From a virus (Duplodnaviria > Heunggongvirae > Uroviricota > Caudoviricetes): 48,921 nt of DNA. The position numbers and the translations under genes were made by a program. The stretch is taken from the IMG/VR virus record IMGVR_UViG_2778261394_000010; one strand, written 5' to 3'. A model generated the notes under the pieces. It did no database searches and was not told where the DNA came from. It saw nothing but the letters and a program-made list of their open reading frames with translations. Position 1 is the stretch's first letter. Each line of letters begins with the position of its first letter. Positions 5,073 through 47,014 of the stretch are shown here, one piece after another.

Positions 5073-7630
5073 CGTCCACCTCCGGAGAACAGGCCACCAT
5101 CACGCATCTGTGTCTGAATTTCATCACGGGCACCCTTGCGGGCCATGTCATACACCGCCTTCAGAGCAGCCGGACCTATCTGCCCGTTCGTGCCGTCGTT
5201 GTTAATCACCACATGGTTATTCTGCTCAAACGTCCCGGACGCCTGCGACCGGCTGTCTGCCATGCTGCCCGGTGTACCGACATAACCGCCGGTGGCATAG
5301 CCGCGCATCAGCCGGTAAAGATTCCCCACGCCAATCCGGCTGGTTGCCTCCTTCGTGAAGACAAACTCACCACGGTGAACAATCCCCGCTGGCTCATATT
5401 TGCCGCCGGTTCCCGTAAATCCTCCGGTTGCAAAATGGAATTTCGCCGCAGCGGCCTGAATGGCTGTACCGCCTGACGCGGATGCGCCGCCACCAACAGC
5501 ACCGCCAATGGCGCTGCCGATACTCCCGACAATCCCCACCATTGCCTGCTTAAGCAGAATTTCTGTCATCATGGACAGCACGGAACGGGTGAAGCTGCGC
5601 CAGTTCTGCTCACTGCCGGTCAGCATCGCCGCCATATTCTGTGCAATACCATCAAAGGTCTGCGTGGCTGCACTTTTTACCTGCGACATACTGTCCGTGG
5701 CGCTCTCTTCCCACTCACTCCAGCCGGACTTCAGGCCTGCCATCCAGCTCCCGCGAAGCTGGTCTTCAGCCGCCCAGGTCTTTTTCTGCTCTGACATGAC
5801 GTTATTCAGCGCCAGCGGATTATCGCCATACTGTTCCTTCAGGCGCTGTTCCGTGGCTTCCCGTTCTGCCTGCCGGTCAGTCAGCCCCCGGCTTTTCGCA
5901 TCAATGGCGGCCCGTTTTGCCCGTTGCTGCTGTGCGAATTTATCCGCCTGCTGCGCCAGCGCGTTCAGGCGCTCCTGATACGTAACCTTGTCGCCAAGTG
6001 CAGCCAGCTGGCGTTTGTACTCCAGCGTCTCATCTTTATGCGCCAGCAGGGATTTCTCCTGTGCAGACAGCTGGCGACGTTGCGCCGCCTCCTCCAGTAC
6101 CGCGAACTGACTCTCCGCCTTCCACAAATCCCGGCGCTGCTGGCTGATTTTCTCATTTGCTCCGGCATGCTTCTCCAGCGTCCGGAGTTCTGCCTGAAGC
6201 GTCAGCAGGGCAGCATGAGCACTGTCTTCCTGACGATCGCCCGCAGACACCTTCACGCCGGACTGTTTCGGCTTTTTCAGCGTCGCTTCATAATCCTTTT
6301 TCGCCGCCGCCATCAGCGTGTTGTAATCCGCCTGCAGGATTTTCCCGTCTTTCAGTGCCTTGTTCAGTTCTTCCTGACGGGCGGTATATTTCTCCAGCGG
6401 CGTCTGCAGCCGTTCGTAAGCCTTCTGCGCCTCTTCGGTATATTTCAGCCGTGACGCTTCGGTATCGCTCTGCTGCTGCGCATTTTTGTCCTGTTGAGTC
6501 TGCTGCTCAGCCTTCTTTCGGGCGGCTTCAAGCGCAAGACGGGCCTTTTCACGATCATCCCAGTAACGCGCCCGCGCTTCATCGTTAACAAAATAATCAT
6601 CCTTGCGCAGATTCCAGATGTCGTCTGCTTTCTTAAACGCAGCCTCTGCCTTAATCAGCATCTCCTGCGCGGTATCAGGACGACCAATATCCAGCACCGC
6701 ATCCCACATGGATTTGAATGCCCGCGCAGTCCTGTCTGCCCAGGTCTCCAGCGTGCCCATGTTCTCTTTCAGGCGGCGGGTCTGGTCATCAAACCCTTTC
6801 GTTGCGGCCTCGTTCGCCGCCTGCAATGCCCCGGCTTCATCGCCGGAACGCTGCAACTGAGCAACATACGCAATCTGCTCCGCCGTCACGTTATGGAACT
6901 GGCGTGCCATCACCGTCAGCCCCGACGTCGGGTCTGTGGTCAGCTTCCCGAAGGCTTCAGCGACCTTGTCCACCTCCACGCCGGATGCAGAGGAGAAACG
7001 CGCCACACTCTGGCTGATGGACGCAATCTGAGCCTCACCGCTTACCCCCGCCTTAACCAGTGCGCTGAGTGACTCGCTGGTCTGGTTAAACGTCAGCCCT
7101 GCCGCCTGCCCGGCTCTGGACAAGACCAGCATACGATCTGCCGTCAGTCCCGCCTGATTGCCGGAAAGGACCAGCGTTTTGTTGAAATCGGACAGGGTTG
7201 AGTTGCCCTGATACCAGGCATACGCCAGCGCACCGGTCGCCACCGCCAGCGAGGTGGCCCCCACCATCGGCAGGGTGATCGCACCGGCAAGCCCCCTGAA
7301 CATGGGGATCATCCCGCCGAAGGAGTCCTTCACCTGCCCCCCCTGTTGCAGCAGGATCAGCCACGGACTTTGCCCGCCTGCAAGCTGCGTGGCCACGTCG
7401 GTGAACTGTGCAGGCAGCATACGCATGCCGGCTTTATACTGCCCGACGGAAATCCCCGCTTTCTGTGCAGCCAGCGCCTGTCGGCTCAGCGACTGTTCAA
7501 CGACTGCCGCTGTTTTTTTCGCATCACTTTCCGTACCGAAAAAATGACGCCTGACTCTGGCCATCTGCTCGTCAAATCTGGCCGCATCCAGACTCAAATC
7601 AACGACCAGATCGCCTACCGGTTCAGCCAT
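5069..7630 (-). CDS. H: Tail tape measure protein H
   Basis: 853-aa ORF, coiled-coil rich, with the glycine-rich segment GGAVGGGASASGGTA; same length and position as lambda gpH. Confidence 0.95.
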   Translation of the reverse strand: MAEPVGDLVVDLSLDAARFDEQMARVRRHFFGTESDAKKTAAVVEQSLSRQALAAQKAGISVGQYKAGMRMLPAQFTDVATQLAGGQSPWLILLQQGGQVKDSFGGMIPMFRGLAGAITLPMVGATSLAVATGALAYAWYQGNSTLSDFNKTLVLSGNQAGLTADRMLVLSRAGQAAGLTFNQTSESLSALVKAGVSGEAQIASISQSVARFSSASGVEVDKVAEAFGKLTTDPTSGLTVMARQFHNVTAEQIAYVAQLQRSGDEAGALQAANEAATKGFDDQTRRLKENMGTLETWADRTARAFKSMWDAVLDIGRPDTAQEMLIKAEAAFKKADDIWNLRKDDYFVNDEARARYWDDREKARLALEAARKKAEQQTQQDKNAQQQSDTEASRLKYTEEAQKAYERLQTPLEKYTARQEELNKALKDGKILQADYNTLMAAAKKDYEATLKKPKQSGVKVSAGDRQEDSAHAALLTLQAELRTLEKHAGANEKISQQRRDLWKAESQFAVLEEAAQRRQLSAQEKSLLAHKDETLEYKRQLAALGDKVTYQERLNALAQQADKFAQQQRAKRAAIDAKSRGLTDRQAEREATEQRLKEQYGDNPLALNNVMSEQKKTWAAEDQLRGSWMAGLKSGWSEWEESATDSMSQVKSAATQTFDGIAQNMAAMLTGSEQNWRSFTRSVLSMMTEILLKQAMVGIVGSIGSAIGGAVGGGASASGGTAIQAAAAKFHFATGGFTGTGGKYEPAGIVHRGEFVFTKEATSRIGVGNLYRLMRGYATGGYVGTPGSMADSRSQASGTFEQNNHVVINNDGTNGQIGPAALKAVYDMARKGARDEIQTQMRDGGLFSGGGR

Positions 7631-32935: not shown

Positions 32936-34033
32936 ATGAAAAAATTAACAGTGGCAATTTCTGCTGTAGCTGCATCAGTACTGATGGCGATGTCTGCTCA
33001 GGCAGCTGAAATTTATAATAAAGACAGTAACAAGCTGGATCTGTACGGGAAAGTTAATGCCAAGCACTACTTTTCCTCTAACGATGCAGATGATGGTGAT
33101 ACTACTTATGTTCGTCTGGGCTTCAAAGGCGAAACCCAAATCAACGATCAGCTGACTGGTTTCGGTCAGTGGGAATATGAATTCAAAGGCAACCGCGCTG
33201 AATCTCAAGGTTCCTCCAAAGACAAAACCCGTCTTGCATTTGCAGGCCTGAAATTCGGTGACTACGGCTCAATCGATTACGGCCGTAACTACGGTGTAGC
33301 ATACGACATCGGTGCGTGGACTGACGTTCTGCCAGAATTCGGTGGCGATACCTGGACCCAAACAGATGTGTTCATGACTGGTCGCACCACAGGTGTTGCA
33401 ACCTATCGTAACAACGACTTCTTTGGTCTGGTTGATGGTCTGAACTTTGCTGCTCAGTACCAAGGCAAAAACGATCGTAGCGATTTCGATAACTACACCG
33501 AAGGTAACGGTGATGGCTTCGGTTTCTCTGCTACCTATGAATACGAAGGATTCGGTATCGGTGCAACTTATGCGAAATCTGATCGTACCGACACTCAAGT
33601 TAATGCAGGGAAAGTTCTTCCTGAAGTATTTGCTTCCGGTAAAAATGCAGAAGTTTGGGCCGCAGGTCTGAAATATGACGCTAACAACATTTACCTGGCC
33701 ACTACCTATTCTGAAACCCAGAATATGACTGTATTTGCTGATCACTTCGTTGCTAATAAAGCTCAAAACTTCGAAGCTGTTGCACAATATCAGTTCGATT
33801 TCGGTCTGCGTCCGTCCGTTGCTTACCTGCAATCTAAAGGTAAGGATCTTGGAGTATGGGGCGATCAGGACTTAGTCAAATATGTTGATGTAGGTGCAAC
33901 CTATTACTTCAACAAAAATATGTCTACTTTCGTTGATTACAAAATCAACCTGCTTGACAAAAATGACTTCACTAAAGCACTCGGTGTAAGCACTGATGAC
34001 ATCGTTGCTGTAGGTCTGGTTTACCAGTTCTAA
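32936..34033 (+). CDS. Outer-membrane porin (NmpC/Lc/OmpC family, prophage moron)
   Basis: 365 aa with signal peptide (…[12 protein letters not shown]), trimeric-porin motifs and C-terminal …VGLVYQF; between Q and S on the opposite strand, as for nmpC in DLP12. Confidence 0.9.
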
Positions 34034-34171: not shown

Positions 34172-34195
34172 GGGGCGTTGCAACGCCCCATTTTT
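34172..34195 (+). terminator. Rho-independent terminator downstream of the porin gene
   Basis: GC-rich hairpin ggggcgttgcaacgcccc followed by atttttaataattttt. Confidence 0.6.
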
Positions 34196-34222: not shown

Positions 34223-34606
34223 TTAATTAGAGTTATTAACAACGATATCCATCTCTAACCGGATATCTAATGCCATTAACATCCCTTCAATTATGCCCTC
34301 AGCCTTCTGTAACCTTTTCCCGATATAACCATCAGAGCAGCAATGCTTACCTGCTAGTGACATGAATGTCATACCGACTACATAATAATCTACTAATAAA
34401 TCGTGCAAATCGCTGTTGTTCTTTTTCAGACGGGCCATGCACCCGCAAATGATCATCGCGTCATCGTCACAACATTGCGGGCGAGATTTTACTTTTGAAG
34501 GAATTAATCCCTTAAAACCGGCGGCAATGGACGACCAGGTCACATCTTCATGATTATTAGCCGCCCACGCTCCCCAACGCTCAAGAACCATCTGAATATC
34601 ACGCAT
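34223..34606 (-). CDS. Q: Late antiterminator Q (QuuD/phage-82 type)
   Basis: ATG at 34606 gives [31 protein letters not shown]… with Cys-rich region [12 protein letters not shown]…CCSDGY; QuuD-like. Confidence 0.85.
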
Positions 34607-34691
34607 CAACTTACTCCACAAAAATCAGACCAGAACGCCAATTACAAGCAAAAATCAACAAAACAGTATTAGTTGATTGTTATCTCTGACT

Positions 34692-36096: not shown

Positions 36097-36285
36097 GCTT
36101 CACCTCCGCAGAGGTCAAACGCTGGATGCAAAAAATCGCAGGTGCATTTCTGCATCTGTGACAGCAAAAGAGAGTTTAGATTGTATGTGCGCATAAACGT
36201 CCCCGTTTAGCGCAGAAGTCACCGATGTTGTTCAGGCTCCGGTGACATTATTATTGCTGGTTGATTATGGAAAATCAAAGGTAGA

Positions 36286-39057: not shown

Positions 39058-39983
39058 AGATCCACCCCGTAAATCCAGTCTGTGTTTGTCAGGTCGAGTT
39101 TTGATTTTCCGGCTGTCACGCCAGCCTGTTGTTTGTTACGGTTGATTTCGAGTTGGGTCCACTTGTCGCGAAGTTTGGCCGGGCTCAGCACGTTACCAGA
39201 CCAAAAGTTGTCCTGGCATGCCCAGCGGAACAGCACGCACATGTCGCGGTGGTTACGTCCGTCACGTTCACGCATCAGGCGGATATCGTTAGCCCATCCT
39301 GCAAAATTCGGTTTTCTGGCTGATGGCGCGATGGTCTTCACCATGTCAAACATCCACTCTGCGGCGGTCAGGTCTTCTGCTGTCCCCCACTTGCTGCCGC
39401 TCTGAATTGCAGCATCTGGTTTCACCACAGGAAGATCGTTTTCTGATTGGTCAGAGGATTCGCCAGAATTCTCGGACGAAAAAGGTTTTATATTGTCTTT
39501 TGTTAGTTTGTCTTTTGTGTTTACCTGATTCGGGTAAACGCCTTTACCTGATTTGGGTAAACTTTTCTTACCTGATTCAGGTAAATTTACCTCTTTCAGG
39601 TAAACTTTATTTTTCTTACCTGATTCGGGTAATGTTGACCATTCACTGACCACATTATTAATGCCGATATTCCGCCCGCTCTGAATAAAAATCCCACGCT
39701 TTACCAGAATACTTTTTGCAGCAGAACACTTGTGCGGCAATATCCCGGTTAATTCGGAAAGTTGCTCGTTGCTAACCCAATCCTGTTTTTTATTAAAGCC
39801 ATATGTTTTGCGCATGACAGCCAGAAAGACCAGAAGCTGGTGCTGTGTTAATCCGGCCAGCATCACAGCTTCCAGCAACTCATTTGCAATGCGCGTATAA
39901 CCATCATCGAGATCTGCCACGCGCCGCTCCTTTTGTGCCTCATCCGGCACTGGAAAATTGAATATCTCAGCAGTGTTTGCCAT
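39054..39983 (-). CDS. O: Replication initiator O (lambda O family; central region diverged, contains the ori)
   Basis: ATG at 39983 with SD GGAGG gives MANTAEIFNFPVPDEAQKERRVADLDDGY…; conserved O N-terminal and P-interacting C-terminal parts; iterons inside the gene. Confidence 0.85.
   Translation of the reverse strand: MANTAEIFNFPVPDEAQKERRVADLDDGYTRIANELLEAVMLAGLTQHQLLVFLAVMRKTYGFNKKQDWVSNEQLSELTGILPHKCSAAKSILVKRGIFIQSGRNIGINNVVSEWSTLPESGKKNKVYLKEVNLPESGKKSLPKSGKGVYPNQVNTKDKLTKDNIKPFSSENSGESSDQSENDLPVVKPDAAIQSGSKWGTAEDLTAAEWMFDMVKTIAPSARKPNFAGWANDIRLMRERDGRNHRDMCVLFRWACQDNFWSGNVLSPAKLRDKWTQLEINRNKQQAGVTAGKSKLDLTNTDWIYGVDL
39521..39633. repeat. Helper replication origin: four to five ~19-bp iterons within O
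   Basis: ttacctgattcgggtaaac, ttacctgatttgggtaaac, ttacctgattcaggtaaat, tacctctttcaggtaaac and ttacctgattcgggtaat, adjacent to an AT-rich stretch, as at ori-lambda. Confidence 0.75.
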
Positions 39984-40069
39984 AATTCCTCCCGCAATGA
40001 GTGTGTTACGATTTGCACCTGAAAGTCGGTTCTGTTCGCGCAGACCGGCTTTCGCCATTTCCGAACCTG

Positions 40070-40615
40070 TCATATTGCCCCCAGCATGGTGGTGACCATC
40101 GCCATCAGTGGACCAGCCAGATCCGGGTCCACACGAAACATCGACACAATGCCTTCACTCATCTCCTTCAGTTTCTGGTGGCGTGGTGCGTTGAGAATGA
40201 CAGCCTGTTTTGCCTCACTGAGTTCCTTTTCCATTTCAGCCAGCCGAGCCATGTAGCTATCCTGCTCAACCAGGTGGCCGCGATATTCCAGCGGTAGTAC
40301 CGCCAGAATTGCCGGGGTCAGTTCACGCACGTTATTTCGGTATTTTTCAGAATCGAATTTGTTATCGAGGAAGCGGAACAGCTTCTGGCGTGCACGACTG
40401 ACATCATCAGGGAAATCGATGGTGCCGCCGCCCTGCTCCCGATACTCATTCACAATGAGTGCGGCAACAACATCCTGATTATCTGCAGCCGACCAGGCGC
40501 GAACGGCATCACGGATTTTTTCGTGGCCTGGCGCCTGTTTTGTTTGAGAACGATTTATCACCGCAGTCGGGCTAAATCCGCTAGTCTGTTGGTATGTAAG
40601 TGGTTGCATAGTCAT
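40070..40615 (-). CDS. Hypothetical protein in the cII position (YdaT-like)
   Basis: 181-aa ORF directly downstream of the cro-like gene and upstream of O; family assignment is from memory only. Confidence 0.45.
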   Translation of the reverse strand: MTMQPLTYQQTSGFSPTAVINRSQTKQAPGHEKIRDAVRAWSAADNQDVVAALIVNEYREQGGGTIDFPDDVSRARQKLFRFLDNKFDSEKYRNNVRELTPAILAVLPLEYRGHLVEQDSYMARLAEMEKELSEAKQAVILNAPRHQKLKEMSEGIVSMFRVDPDLAGPLMAMVTTMLGAI

Positions 40616-40639
40616 TGCCTTATCAGTTAACGCCGCAGT

Positions 40640-40873
40640 TTAGGCGGCAGAATTACTCGCGTTAAACAATGGTGCGAGGTCGGGACGAATATCTGCTGGT
40701 TTAATCTTTCCACCAGTGGCTGAGACAATTTTCATTACATAGCGGGCATCAATTCCGCCACCGTGTAGCCAACGCCAAACTGTGGGTTGGGCTACACCGC
40801 ATAGATCTGCCAGTCGTTTTTGACTACCTGTAATACTGATTGCGAGTTGAATGGTTTGATTTGTCATTATCAA
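40640..40873 (-). CDS. cro: Cro-like HTH repressor (YdaS family)
   Basis: 77 aa; LADLCGVAQPTVWRWLHGGG HTH; divergent from the cI-like gene across an operator region. Confidence 0.7.
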   Translation of the reverse strand: MIMTNQTIQLAISITGSQKRLADLCGVAQPTVWRWLHGGGIDARYVMKIVSATGGKIKPADIRPDLAPLFNASNSAA

Positions 40874-40977
40874 TTCCTATTGGTATTGCAATGAATGAAT
40901 AATAGCAATGCGTATTAACCCAAGCAATAGCAAAACGTGTTTTGACCATCAATACGCAAGCGTATAAATTAAAACTT
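40874..40977. promoter_or_regulatory. OR-like operator / divergent promoter region between cro and cI
   Basis: Repeated operator-like elements sharing a TAGCAAT / CAATACG core (attgcaatg, atagcaatgcgtat, caatagcaaaacg, caatacgcaagcg); the same motif family recurs at OL (43540..43600). Confidence 0.5.
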
Positions 40978-41670
40978 ATGAAAAAAGAAACTCTTGCTGA
41001 TCGCTTAAACCTAGCGATGGAACAATCTGGAATGTCTCAAGGCGCTCTTGCAAAGGCGTCTGGCGTAGCTCAACCCACAATCTGGAGACTGACAAGCGGC
41101 AACGCGCGCGGCTCAACAAAAATTGTTGAAATAGCTAATGCATTGGGTGTTCGAACAGAATGGCTCTCATCAGGCATAGGCCCGATGAGAAATGACGGTC
41201 AACAATCAGGGAAGCCTGCTGTCAGCCATTCCAAATACTTCAAAATTGACGTTCTTGATATAGAAGTCAGTGCCGGGCCGGGTGTAATCAACCGTGAGTT
41301 TGTAGAAGTTCTACGCTCGGTTGAGTACTCGTTTGACGATGCTCGTCACATGTTCGATGGCAGGAAGGCAGAAAATATCCGCATCATTAACGTGCGTGGT
41401 GACAGCATGTCAGGAACGATCGAACCAGGTGATCTGCTGTTCGTTGATATCACGGTTAAATCTTTCGACGGTGATGGTATCTATGCGTTTCTGTACGACG
41501 ACACAGCCCATGTAAAGCGTCTGCAAATGATGAAGGATAAGCTGCTGGTTATCTCTGATAACAAGAGCTACTCACCGTGGGACCCGATCGAGAAAGACGA
41601 GATGAACCGGGTGTTCATCTTCGGTAAGGTTATTGGGAGCATGCCGCAGACGTATAGGAAGCATGGGTAG
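40978..41670 (+). CDS. cI: CI-like repressor (HTH plus S24 LexA-type peptidase domain)
   Basis: N-terminal HTH (LADRLNLAMEQSGMSQGALAKASGVAQPTIWRL) and C-terminal S24 motifs (GDSMSGTIEPGDLLFVD…VKRL); start 40978 preferred over 40942, which overlaps operator repeats. Confidence 0.8.
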   Translation: MKKETLADRLNLAMEQSGMSQGALAKASGVAQPTIWRLTSGNARGSTKIVEIANALGVRTEWLSSGIGPMRNDGQQSGKPAVSHSKYFKIDVLDIEVSAGPGVINREFVEVLRSVEYSFDDARHMFDGRKAENIRIINVRGDSMSGTIEPGDLLFVDITVKSFDGDGIYAFLYDDTAHVKRLQMMKDKLLVISDNKSYSPWDPIEKDEMNRVFIFGKVIGSMPQTYRKHG

Positions 41671-41716: not shown

Positions 41717-42565
41717 ATGTCTTCGATTTGGGGAAAAAAGTTGATGACGAAAGAACAAGAGCCAAACACTGATGAAGTGAAACCAGAGCAAGGAAGTTTG
41801 TTTGAATTAGAATTTCATGAATATACACCTTCAAGCTTAGGCACTGCACACCTTTCTGGTTTCGCTATTGCCACTGATGAAATGGAATATGCAGTTAAAA
41901 GCATGCGTTCCACCCCACCTTTTCCTGTACAAAACCCAACTCAAGTACCGGCAGCGGAATGGTTTTGCACAAATTTAGCTGAAAAATGCGGCATCGCTAC
42001 ACCTGTGTGCAAAATTCTCAAGTGTATTGCTAATGGGGAGTATGTTTTTGGCTCTCGCATAGAGTTTTCAGCCTGGAAATCTGGTCTCAATAGTCCTCAA
42101 TGGATAAATTTGCTCTCAAATGCTTCTGAATCCTTAAAGAAGCAACTCTGGGCAATTTATGCATTTGATCAGTTTGTATATAACATTGACAGACACCTCA
42201 ACAACTACTTATACATGGAAAACACCCGAGGCAATGTTATAGTTAAAACATTCGATTTTAGTCTAAGCTCTTTTGTTATAGGCTGGCCACGAAATACCCC
42301 TCATATACTACCAACAGACTCCAGTACAACAACAAACTGGACGATTGCTAAACAATTCATTGGCGACACTGATGATCTGAGAAAGTGCGCATTATCTGTC
42401 CTTGACAAAATTGAAAAAATTGGAGTTGAGACTATATCTGATATACTTAACTCTATGCCTGAAGCATGGATGCCACCAATGCATAAGGAGTATTTTTTGA
42501 AGTGGTGGGACAGCGAGGAGCGAATCGATAGGCTAAATGCCATAAGACTGGAGATAACATCTTGA
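41717..42565 (+). CDS. Kinase-fold protein (HipA/CtkA- or PI3/4-kinase-like catalytic loop), first gene of an immunity-region module
   Basis: 282 aa; catalytic-loop-like YNIDRHLNNYLY (D-R-H-x-N-N) followed by FDFSLSSF; co-transcribed with cI at the lambda rexA position. Confidence 0.5.
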   Translation: MSSIWGKKLMTKEQEPNTDEVKPEQGSLFELEFHEYTPSSLGTAHLSGFAIATDEMEYAVKSMRSTPPFPVQNPTQVPAAEWFCTNLAEKCGIATPVCKILKCIANGEYVFGSRIEFSAWKSGLNSPQWINLLSNASESLKKQLWAIYAFDQFVYNIDRHLNNYLYMENTRGNVIVKTFDFSLSSFVIGWPRNTPHILPTDSSTTTNWTIAKQFIGDTDDLRKCALSVLDKIEKIGVETISDILNSMPEAWMPPMHKEYFLKWWDSEERIDRLNAIRLEITS

Positions 42566-43368
42566 AAACTTTCAAATACAGCTTAATCAGAGTTACACCG
42601 AACTTAGAGAAAGGTGAAACGATTAACGTTGGTTTGATCGTTTACCATGACTCTGACATAGACGTACGTATGCTCAATTCAGTTTCAAAACTTAAAGCGA
42701 TTGACAAAGATCTTACCTTAGATTACTTAGAGGATCTTTCAACCTCGCTTTTTGATTTGTCACAAAAAATCAACAATGCTGAACTTCTTCCTTGTCTTTT
42801 TAAGGGAGCATTATCGTTATCGTCATTTGGCATGTTCACTCTTCAAGCCAACGAAGATTACGAAGCTAAAGTTACTGATCTAATGAATCGGTTAGTAAAC
42901 CCACAAAAACAACCACATAAGCAGTTGAAAAAAAAGGTTTTTTCTGAATTAAAATCCACCTTTATACAACATGGAATTTTCAGTAAGTATTTTGAAGATC
43001 TTTCCCAACATAAAATCGTAGCTAATTATCCAATTAGTAATGAAGAAGGGTTAGTTGCAGATTTTTTGTTAAAAAATGGCAAATACCATCTTACAGAAAC
43101 ATTAGATTTTCGTTCTGAAAATATAAAAAAACAAATGGGTGAAGCTGCGATAAGTGTTTTAACAATTACTAAAGCCTACGAATTATACAATTCAAATATT
43201 GATTCATTTGTAATTTTTGCCGCTGAAACGACAGCACAAGAAAAGTCAGCAAAACAGCAGCTAAATCTACTGGAAAAACACGCTGATAATCTTATCAACG
43301 CATATAGCAAAGAAGACATGCGTTCATATTACGAAAAGATGCTGAATGCTGCCTCTATGTTACAGTAG
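42562..43368 (+). CDS. Hypothetical partner protein, translationally coupled to the kinase-fold gene
   Basis: 268 aa; TTG start overlapping the upstream stop (cTTGA); N-terminus YSLIRVTPNLEKGETINVGLIVY may resemble DUF3037-type proteins (from memory, unverified); AT-rich. Confidence 0.4.
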   Translation: MKTFKYSLIRVTPNLEKGETINVGLIVYHDSDIDVRMLNSVSKLKAIDKDLTLDYLEDLSTSLFDLSQKINNAELLPCLFKGALSLSSFGMFTLQANEDYEAKVTDLMNRLVNPQKQPHKQLKKKVFSELKSTFIQHGIFSKYFEDLSQHKIVANYPISNEEGLVADFLLKNGKYHLTETLDFRSENIKKQMGEAAISVLTITKAYELYNSNIDSFVIFAAETTAQEKSAKQQLNLLEKHADNLINAYSKEDMRSYYEKMLNAASMLQ

Positions 43369-43394
43369 AAAAAACTGACTAATTTAATTAATAA

Positions 43395-43421
43395 CCCGGC
43401 CACCGTGCCGGGTTTTCTTTT
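43395..43421 (+). terminator. Rho-independent terminator ending the cI operon
   Basis: Hairpin cccggc-caccgt-gccggg followed by ttttctttt. Confidence 0.65.
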
Positions 43422-43539
43422 GTCCCCTCCCCTCATCACACACCGCTCAAAAAACCACCACACCACTGCTTCAGTTATCGCTATGCGATGCAAGTCACAA
43501 AATTAATTCTTTTTGCTATCAAACATTTAATATCAAAAC

Positions 43540-43600
43540 ACATCAACCAATAGCAATAAGTATTGATATCACCAATAGCAATAGCTATTATCACCATATC
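43540..43600 (+). promoter_or_regulatory. pL-like promoter with OL operators
   Basis: -35 TTGATA (43564..43569), 17-bp spacer, -10 TATTAT (43587..43592), embedded in repeated caatagcaat operator-like motifs shared with the OR region. Confidence 0.55.
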
Positions 43601-43664
43601 GCAACAACACAACGATACGGCAACCACCTGATTCACCGTTGCGATGACCGCTTAGATCCGCAGC

Positions 43665-44075
43665 TTGAATTTCAGCAGGCTCCGGGGAGTGCGAGGGGTG
43701 AAGCGGACGCGTGAACGTCGGTGTGACCAGCTGAAATCAACACAACACTTTATACCTCAGTCGCTTCAACGAGGCGGCTTAGTTATGACAACCGGCGGCC
43801 ATCCACCGCCTGAATACGCGCAGAAGTCTCTATATGTTCAGCAGCCCAGTTTACGGGCAGGAGTTTTTATGGTTCATCAACATTACGGAACGCAGACCGT
43901 TAATCGCGGCGCGGTCATGCCAGGAATGCTGGTCAAACACAAAGATGGTACCTGGACTGCATCAGCTAATTTACGCGGACGGCTTTATCTGCATCGCGGC
44001 ATCGAGCGCACTTATACCCGTGATTTGCTCGTGGAAGTTTTTCTCGACGGACGCGGTAACGGCCTGAATCACTAA
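43665..44075 (+). CDS. Hypothetical first gene of the pL operon; Arg-rich N-terminal motif if a non-ATG start is used (possible N-like protein)
   Basis: Open frame from 43665 (TTG); GTG at 43698 or ATG at 43780 are alternative starts; the upstream part encodes RLRGVRGVKRTRERR, reminiscent of N-protein arginine-rich motifs. Confidence 0.35.
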   Translation: MNFSRLRGVRGVKRTRERRCDQLKSTQHFIPQSLQRGGLVMTTGGHPPPEYAQKSLYVQQPSLRAGVFMVHQHYGTQTVNRGAVMPGMLVKHKDGTWTASANLRGRLYLHRGIERTYTRDLLVEVFLDGRGNGLNH

Positions 44076-44151
44076 CCCCCCTTTCCTGTTTTCCTAATCA
44101 GCCTGGCATTTCGCGGGCGCTATTTTCACAGCCATTTTCAGGAGTTCAGCC

Positions 44152-44448
44152 ATGAACGCTTATTACATTCAGGATCGTCTTGAGGCTCAGAGCTGGGCGC
44201 GTCACTACCAGCAGATCGCCCGTGAAGAGAAAGAGGCAGAACTGGCAGACGACATGGAAAAAGGCCTGCCCCAGCACCTGTTTGAATCGCTATGCATCGA
44301 TCATTTGCAACGCCACGGGGCCAGCAAAAAAGCCATTACCCGTGCGTTTGATGACGATGTTGAGTTTCAGGAGCGCATGGCAGAACACATCCGGTACATG
44401 GTTGAAACCATTGCTCACCACCAGGTTGATATTGATTCAGAGGTATAA
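44152..44448 (+). CDS. gam: Gam (RecBCD inhibitor), short form
   Basis: 98 aa [56 protein letters not shown]…, lambda GamS. Confidence 0.9.
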
Positions 44449-46916: not shown

Positions 46917-47014
46917 ACATGAAAAGCAAAATCATCAGGGAGCTACAGGCTCCTTTTTTATTGTTCGCATTCATCCTCAAGCGTATTAACCAACAATTCA
47001 GGGATTAATGGAAG

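Follow-up and report, generated by a model that had tools for sequence, protein, structure and literature searches.

The prophage carried by the IMG/VR record IMGVR_UViG_2778261394_000010, a stretch of 48,921 nucleotides (nt) that is referred to here as the window, is a lambdoid prophage of the Perceval/CP-933P-like kind, and we have analysed the start of its early leftward operon, between the promoter pL and the gam gene. An original prediction, made from the letters of the DNA, had described this operon as minimal and as having no recognisable N, cIII or kil, and had drawn attention to a single open reading frame (ORF) encoding an arginine-rich stretch, RLRGVRGVKRTRERR, that resembled the motif of lambda N. 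On the reading that we favour, and to which we give a probability of roughly 0.78 as a whole, the operon runs from pL through an untranslated leader of ~270 nt into kil, gam, bet and exo, there is no N, nut or cIII, and the arginine 'motif' is an artefact of the leader. The two features on which this turns are as follows.

43869-44075, + strand: kil, encoding a 68-aa protein of the KilR/phi80 type (PHROG_294, NF008465, Rac KilR).
43665-44075, + strand: a 136-codon ORF, a composite of leader and kil and not a gene (family matches start at residue 69).

The product of kil, the first gene after pL, matches PHROG_294 ('Kil protein for bacterial septation inhibition') over residues 1-68 with an E value of 1.3e-37, the match covering residues 69-136 of the 136-codon ORF. 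The NCBIfam model NF008465 (Rac KilR family) is matched with an E value of 1.8e-17 over profile positions 1-70 of 73, a score below its curated equivalog cut-off, and position 1 of this profile aligns to Met69 of the long ORF, that is to ATG 43869. Likewise, BLASTP against K-12 Rac KilR (36% identity, E 9e-13) aligned residue 1 to residue 1, and tblastn alignments with the Kil homologues of HK225, mEp237, SEN34 and Klebsiella phages begin at residue 1. The NCBI Prokaryotic Genome Annotation Pipeline (PGAP) calls the identical 207-nt kil coding sequence (CDS) in four E. coli genomes, none of which has a CDS annotated upstream of it. The start codon is served by a Shine-Dalgarno (SD) sequence, AGGAG, at 43859-43863, 5 nt before ATG 43869, and kil adjoins gam, bet and exo on their upstream side, an arrangement which matches that of the PGAP-annotated relatives. 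Variation was followed in a sample of IMG/VR contigs and E. coli genomes anchored on a 26-mer downstream of the leader, which yielded 121 copies of the region, 94 of them distinct. Among these 94 variants the polymorphic sites of kil fall on first, second and third codon positions in the proportion 4/8/25, and this excess at third positions marks kil as a protein under purifying selection. We assign 43869-44075 to kil, its product being a predicted FtsZ inhibitor. The statement that no kil could be recognised was thus wrong, since a Kil is plainly encoded in the 3' half of the ORF; it was missed because this Kil is unrelated to the 47-aa Kil of lambda, to which we found no similarity. Deposited records for the region (Perceval 6258-6677, our locus L001; 1W/3W; SEN34) disagree with one another, offering a 139-aa 'Kil', a 'hypothetical protein' and a 'membrane carboxypeptidase', and the deposited long ORF has probably been extended too far, across the leader.

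The ORF encoding RLRGVRGVKRTRERR is present as described, at 43665-44075, although its first ATG lies at 43785 and not at 43780 as had been given. It exists only because this variant lacks a stop between leader and kil. The stretch RLRGVRGVKRTRERR is what results when the G-rich centre of the leader, 43677-43721, is translated, the tract around it containing 13-17 G per 30 nt. A six-frame translation of the window contains RERR seven times and, in other frames, eight Arg/Lys clusters richer than this one, so that the arginine-rich stretch is not beyond chance. The frame leading from it into kil is uninterrupted in 51/94 variants and is cut off at 20-29 codons in 39/94; an in-frame TAG at 43758 (CAG to TAG) is found in 34/94, a 5-nt TCAAC duplication after 43736 in 5/94 and a 1-nt deletion at 43790 in 3/94. 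Codon-position counts are flat, at 8/5/5 for the arginine-rich frame (43698-43784) and 2/2/2 for 43785-43868, and conservation of the leader upstream of the putative start codon, GTG 43698, equals that downstream of it. RefSeq/PGAP annotates no CDS over the leader stretch in the matching E. coli genomes. What looks like an arginine-rich 'motif' is G-rich leader sequence read by chance as protein. The TCAAC tandem duplication, at 43736/43737 in a C-rich tract of the leader, was seen in E. coli TUM17668 (our locus L005), from which kil and gam are also deleted, and in four other IMG/VR variants.

The original prediction had offered two readings of the operon, a divergent N/nut pair or the lack of N-type antitermination, and it is the second that stands. 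In the first, a protein started at GTG 43698 would bind a non-canonical boxB through an N-terminal arginine-rich motif and antiterminate early transcription. Several features speak for it: GTG 43698 is indeed preceded by GGAG (43686-43689, 8 nt ahead), as had been reported; KRTRERR resembles the lambda N motif TRRRERR; the codon at 43698 is ATG in 13/94 variants; and the place just downstream of pL is that of N in lambda. Against it, Pfam, PHROG and NCBIfam gave no N match for either the 136-aa ORF or the 29-aa arginine-rich segment, BLASTP against lambda N left the segment unaligned, and what the protein does match is Kil, a family other than N. The remainder of the frame is encoded by homologues as a free-standing 68-aa protein, and the supported start, ATG 43869, lies downstream even of the ATG named in the original prediction, which leaves the arginine-rich segment outside the product. 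The frame is broken after 20-29 codons in the 39 variants mentioned above, all 13 variants with ATG at 43698 belong to a haplotype truncated at 20 codons, the excess of third-position polymorphism is missing, and the motif is no rarer than chance within the window.

Searches for the other parts of such a system gave the same picture. Neither a boxB-like hairpin (a GNRNA loop on a stem of 4 bp or more) nor a boxA (at most 1 mismatch) was found in the transcribed + strand leader or in 39900-40950 on the - strand; the lone boxA-like match in 43400-44200 falls inside the kil coding sequence, at 44007. Formally, a boxB of non-canonical form might still be present. The gap between cro and ydaT is 24 nt, which leaves no room for nutR. 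No ORF of either early operon matches the N, Nun or cIII families, no + strand ORF between pL and int has a cIII family match, and all other ORFs of the two operons could be assigned to families other than N and cIII; the only antiterminator found in the prophage is a Q-family protein. The claims that the operon has no recognisable N or cIII and no canonical boxA/boxB nut site were thus borne out by these scans. A divergent N/nut pair is already largely refuted and scarcely credible, and we conclude that this is a prophage family without an N/nut system.

The region between pL and kil is occupied by the promoter and the leader, the parts of which, all on the + strand, are the following.

43548-43565 and 43573-43590, + strand: oL operators with the motif CAATAGCAATANNTATTG, overlapping pL.
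43563-43568 and 43586-43591, + strand: pL, -35 TTGATA and -10 TATTAT with a 17-nt spacer (10/12 in a sigma-70 promoter scan).
43598-43631, + strand: 5' end of the pL transcript, CA-rich and G-poor (11-12 C and 4 G per 30 nt), differing by immunity type.
43632-43737, + strand: conserved, non-coding leader core (95-100% identity across the 94 variants).
43738-43750, + strand: polymorphic, C-rich, G-poor spacer of rut-like composition (9-11 C and 2 G per 30 nt).
43751-43787, + strand: hairpin H1, whose stem pairs GAGG and AUG 43785 (RNAalifold, covariation).
43794-43810, + strand: hairpin H2 (GGCGG, CCAUCCA loop, CCGCC), in the near-invariant block ATGACAACCGGCGGCCATCCACCG (RNAalifold).
43844-43858, + strand: small hairpin H3 (GCCC/GGGC), directly before the kil SD (minimum free energy fold).

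Apart from pL, the operator motif CAATAGCAATANNTATTG occurs only between cI and cro; the window holds 9 matches where 0.47 would be expected, and 0/100 shuffles reach that number. As the promoter overlaps operators shared with the cI-cro region, it can be identified as oL/pL. The distance from the end of the -10 element (43591) to gam (44152) is ~560 bp, and the short pL-to-gam interval of about 550 bp that had been claimed is therefore confirmed.

The ~270-nt leader evolves as non-coding sequence. The segment 43598-43790 is present at 95-99% identity in 2223/5426 complete E. coli genomes, in which cI always comes first, followed by variable accessory or defence genes, then by pL and the leader, and finally by kil, gam, bet and exo. 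In most of them the homology sets in precisely at the predicted +1 (43598, or query position 59), and one variant group joins at 43632. On its upstream side the leader adjoins operator/promoter regions of at least three unrelated kinds, corresponding to different immunity types. In composition the leader falls into three parts, a CA-rich and G-poor 5' end, a G-rich centre and a second C-rich, G-poor tract at 43728-43767 (2 G per 30 nt). Within the leader, polymorphism is highest in the spacer 43738-43750, which hosts the TCAAC duplication, and the segment 43785-43868 is the least polymorphic of the region, below kil itself.

At the extreme 5' end of the predicted pL transcript, positions 43602-43613 (CAACAACACAAC) are a perfect 12-nt complement of nt 72-83 of the small RNA (sRNA) GcvB, its R1 seed. 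The extended duplex with R1, within 43598-43657, has an energy of -33.7 kcal/mol against -22.0 +/- 3.6 for shuffles, none of which (0/200) reach it, and the window holds only one further 12-mer of this kind. Variation occurs within the site (A43606G in 15/94 variants), which is missing from one leader type, and the complementarity may be a mere by-product of CA-richness. The CA-richness had also raised the suspicion that the 5' end is the anti-GcvB sRNA AgvB, which was rejected since AgvB is located at the PR' moron site (PMC4104026).

From 43750 onwards, the leader is 72-86% identical to HK225, to phi80 (the 'tL1 region', M11919), to HK639 (where it is annotated 'terminator') and to Enterobacter phages. 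RNAalifold was run on 17 diverse copies of this module (43751-43810), in which it predicts both H1 and H2. In the H1 structure 97.6% of cells are paired, against 29-53% in slid controls, and 7 pairs are changed on both sides; 35 cells show such double changes as compared with 9.6 in shuffles, none of which (0/500) reach the observed number. Within E. coli, 6/7 H1 polymorphisms preserve pairing, and the frequent C/T site at 43758, the source of the TAG, is an internal mismatch of the hairpin. H1 is thus an RNA hairpin maintained by compensatory change. At the position of H3, relatives carry other self-complementary arms (GCGC/GCGC, GCC/GGC and GCCGA/TCGGC), as judged by eye and unscored. H1 is also common to P22-like and Enterobacter/Citrobacter prophages. 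A 24-mer of the module has exact matches in the genomes of 17 species representatives from Enterobacter, Citrobacter, Scandinavium and Huaxiibacter, and it is found in phi80, HK639, HK225 and BHUENT6 as well; the central block of at least 24 nt in phi80, HK639 and HK225 is identical or one base off. A diverged copy lies in the P22-like Salmonella phage S9-5, before a small, possibly c3-like ORF and kil. That the module marks a post-N tL1 region was considered and dropped, as the ORFs upstream of it in 22 relatives are diverse; inspection of these ORFs across the 22 relatives, by eye and with no family scan, found no N-like arginine-rich N-terminus.

AUG 43785, which is paired within H1, opens a frame beginning MTTGGHPPP, and the conserved module could accordingly be read as coding, that is as the N-terminal part of a 97-aa Kil isoform. 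ATG 43785 is in frame with kil, with no intervening stop, in 91/94 variants, some phage annotators call long 'Kil' ORFs, such as the 139-aa one in Perceval, and the PHROG_294 profile reaches 12 positions upstream of the Met. However, in phi80, HK225, HK639, BHUENT6 and other relatives the frame of the equivalent ATG stops after ~20 codons or enters unrelated genes, and the block GAAGTCTTG is read in three different frames among them. Every change observed in the first codons either alters the residue or shifts the frame, both the AUG and the GAGG are paired inside H1, and NF008465 and KilR begin at Met 43869. We regard a 97-aa isoform as very unlikely. An upstream ORF, MTTGGHPPP, acting as a conserved stalling peptide was rejected on the same grounds, namely that all changes are non-synonymous or frameshifting and that GAAGTCTTG is read in three frames.

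On the reading that we favour, early leftward transcription would be independent of N and the structured leader would act as a cis-acting gate on the toxic kil. Such a gate could work by Rho loading on the two C-rich, G-poor tracts of the leader, resulting in Rho-dependent attenuation, by control of translation or mRNA processing at H1-H3, or by both. The proposal is made because Kil is toxic and because its homologue in Rac is silenced by Rho/NusG termination: kilR of Rac is silenced by NusG/Rho-dependent termination (PMC5793797), and its 5' untranslated region contains the Hfq-associated sRNA KilS (PMC8175672). For this mechanistic part we would put the odds at about even.

The intrinsic terminators that bear on early leftward transcription are the following.

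43393-43414, + strand: intrinsic terminator upstream of pL, ending the cI/HipA-like/DUF3037 transcript (8-bp stem with 6 G-C pairs, followed by a T-run).
46937-46955, + strand: the sole convincing intrinsic terminator inside the pL operon (8-bp stem and T6; z -2.7).

The first of these folds with an energy of -14.2 kcal/mol (z -3.3). No intrinsic terminator was found between +1 and kil, nor a convincing one on the - strand from pR to Q, and there is therefore nothing clear for an N protein to override. In the relatives, the module lies directly 3' of a hairpin and T-run in 20/22 cases, one relative ending at a contig edge. On the - strand, a hairpin at 40615-40645 (GCCGC-CUAAACU-GCGGC) overlaps the cro stop codon; it lacks a T-run and is near-identical to the stem of the phi80/Enterobacter 'GCCGCCTAACCAGCGGC-T6' terminators that precede the H1 module.

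Several observations weigh against this reading of an untranslated leader and an operon transcribed without antitermination. Terminator scans see the intrinsic type only, Rho-dependent terminators being invisible to them, and the terminator at 46937-46955 lies upstream of a traR-like gene, xis and int, although it may simply end the early-left unit. The function given to the leader is one that we infer. The z-scores of leader minimum free energies are unremarkable (+0.26, -0.45 and -1.13), and Alifold on 32 distinct sequences of the core 43632-43737 found no compensatory pairs, variation there being too low; the core shows only wobble-compatible single changes, and the G-to-A change at 43698 breaks a predicted pair. 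Finally, all 94 variants preserve a short ORF that begins at 43698 and is 20-29 codons long; its start codon is ATG in 13 of them, and synonymous changes account for 4 of its common polymorphisms, which number roughly 8.

This last point could mean that translation from 43698 yields a micropeptide of 20-29 aa rich in arginine, (M/V)KRTRERRCDQLK..., with a role other than that of N: its translation might, for example, shield the leader from Rho, or the peptide might bind RNA. In all 94 variants the ORF keeps its start codon, its SD and its first 13 codons intact, the polymorphism seen most often inside it (43703, G/A) is synonymous, and a GTG-to-ATG change has occurred in 13. The nucleotides upstream of the start are, however, equally conserved, so that the conservation is not specific to the ORF. 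The polymorphism shows the flat codon-position pattern of 8/5/5, the C-terminal half is variable, has no constant length and carries a frameshift in 5 variants, a change from GGGGAG to GGGAAG weakens the SD in 6, and there is no family match. Translation of such a peptide is therefore improbable in our estimation.

The leader could also be an RNA-based processive antiterminator or Rho antagonist, with the role of put and an unrelated sequence. It is non-coding and strongly conserved, starts at about +1 whatever the immunity type, belongs to a phage without N and is followed by an intrinsic terminator ahead of xis and int; putL is likewise promoter-proximal (PMC9378689). A put covariance model was built from HK022 putL, HK022 putR and HK639 putL, which it scores at 70-98 bits. 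Up to E 10 the model lists nothing within the leader, and its top hit in the window (E 0.9) is located elsewhere. Rfam 15 gave no match at the gathering score in the whole window, and only chance-level hits (E of ~1 or more) in 43300-44200. Moreover, the 5' core has no demonstrated structure, the pR operon has no counterpart, its cro leader and cro-ydaT gap being too short, and H1/H2, the sole part with a proven structure, is shared with phi80 and HK639, phages equipped with an N or put of their own. We think it unlikely that the leader works in this way. The same holds for the broader proposal that the core 43632-43737 together with H1/H2 forms a new class of cis-acting RNA, a functional analogue of put or nut, unrelated to both in sequence, that carries the early-left transcription of a very common family of N-less E. 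coli prophages through Rho-dependent or intrinsic terminators, and/or that the mini-ORF is translated to take part in this; it, too, has only a small chance of being right. The H1/H2 module and the conserved 5' core are undescribed in Rfam and in the literature searched, and constitute a modest lead.

A close known parallel is the kilR locus of the Rac prophage of E. coli K-12. Its KilR is a homologous Kil of the same length class, and Rac is likewise an N-less lambdoid prophage with RacR/YdaS/YdaT-type immunity. As mentioned above, kilR is preceded by a long untranslated region, from which KilS is derived (PMC8175672). The region upstream of kilR, KilS included, shows no sequence similarity to the leader described here, and we therefore rejected the leader as a counterpart of KilS. 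The two prophages also differ in that ydaG, ydaF and sieB lie between the repressor gene and kilR in Rac, whereas here kil comes first after pL.

The phages phi80, HK639 and HK225 share the H1-AUG-H2 module upstream of the kil cluster, with compensatory changes in the H1 stem, and the Kil homologues of phi80 and HK639 are 38-41% identical to the one described here. In phi80 the module follows an intrinsic terminator and an ORF called N, and in HK639 an intrinsic terminator, a put-like RNA and two ORFs, whereas here it follows a 150-nt non-coding segment which itself directly follows pL. HK639 and phi80 have in common a pL-proximal leader start of their own, CCATCGAAACGAAACATCGA.AGCTGAG.GAAGTTAGCCAGCGGCG (locus L002, 1242-1300, and locus L003, 600-680), after which they diverge, HK639 continuing into a put-like RNA and phi80 into the 'nutL' region. 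Here, too, a conserved promoter-proximal leader is joined to different downstream cassettes.

Lambda has the same order and direction of cI, accessory genes, oL/pL and kil-gam-bet-exo, and also a Q-type late antiterminator. It differs in having N, nutL, tL1, ral, sieB, ea10 and cIII, none of which is present here, and in a pL-to-gam distance of ~2.4 kb compared with ~0.56 kb. The put elements of HK022 and HK639 are also promoter-proximal non-coding RNAs of a leftward early operon in phages without a conventional N, but nothing here matches them in sequence or structure, and the pR operon holds no second copy.

The surrounding genes are listed below; the + strand of the prophage corresponds to the leftward direction of lambda.

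34223-34621, - strand: Q-family antiterminator (Pfam Phage_antitermQ, E 1e-53).
40070-40615, - strand: YdaT-type 'CII'.
40640-40873, - strand: Cro-like gene.
40942-41670, + strand: cI (helix-turn-helix and S24 peptidase).
41717-43368, + strand: two accessory genes between cI and pL.
44152-44448, + strand: gam (Pfam Gam, E 3.4e-65).

The immunity region comprises cI, the Cro-like protein and the YdaT-type 'CII'; downstream of pL the + strand carries kil-gam-bet-exo and, further on, xis-int, and the - strand also encodes rusA, ninB, ren, P and O. Among sequenced phages, Perceval (Bievrevirus), 4A7, Lambda_4C10, 1W/3W and the PhiR series come closest, with 90-97% identity across 43395-44160.

Further observations concern the neighbourhood. 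The two accessory genes (41717-42565 and 42562-43368, + strand) form a cassette in the cI-pL interval at the position of rexAB, and encode a HipA-like kinase (Pfam HipA_2) and a DUF3037 protein. The pair is a weak match to the PADLOC candidate defence system PDC-M66A/B (E 1.5e-3 and 2.6e-8), and in relatives the cargo at this spot differs (SIR2, ASCH, DUF7946). A perfect copy of the YdaT operator known from the literature, TTGATTN6AATCAA, is located at 36261-36278, in the gap upstream of the ninB-side genes, and a copy with 1 mismatch at 40856-40873 overlaps the cro start; none lies within the leader. This placement is unlike that in CP-933P, whose site is the ydaS/ydaT junction. Just past Q and antiparallel to it, a gene for an OmpC/NmpC-type porin (32936-34033, + strand; Pfam Porin_1, E 2e-156) is placed like nmpC in DLP12 and has a strong terminator behind it, at 34172-34189.

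Lambdoid prophages that lack N and have an immunity region of the RacR/YdaS/YdaT type are already known from Rac and CP-933P (PMC9986795), and the KilR type of Kil is also known. As annotation the result is thus ordinary, correcting an 'N-like' or long 'Kil' ORF that has been mis-called in deposited phage records. It also shows that a prophage family found in about 40% of complete E. coli genomes is without N/nut. As a by-product, it brings to light a leader RNA that had not been annotated, is conserved more strongly than kil and contains a hairpin covarying across several enterobacterial genera. As this leader precedes a toxic FtsZ inhibitor whose homologue in Rac is controlled by termination, it is a testable candidate for a gate on Kil at prophage induction.

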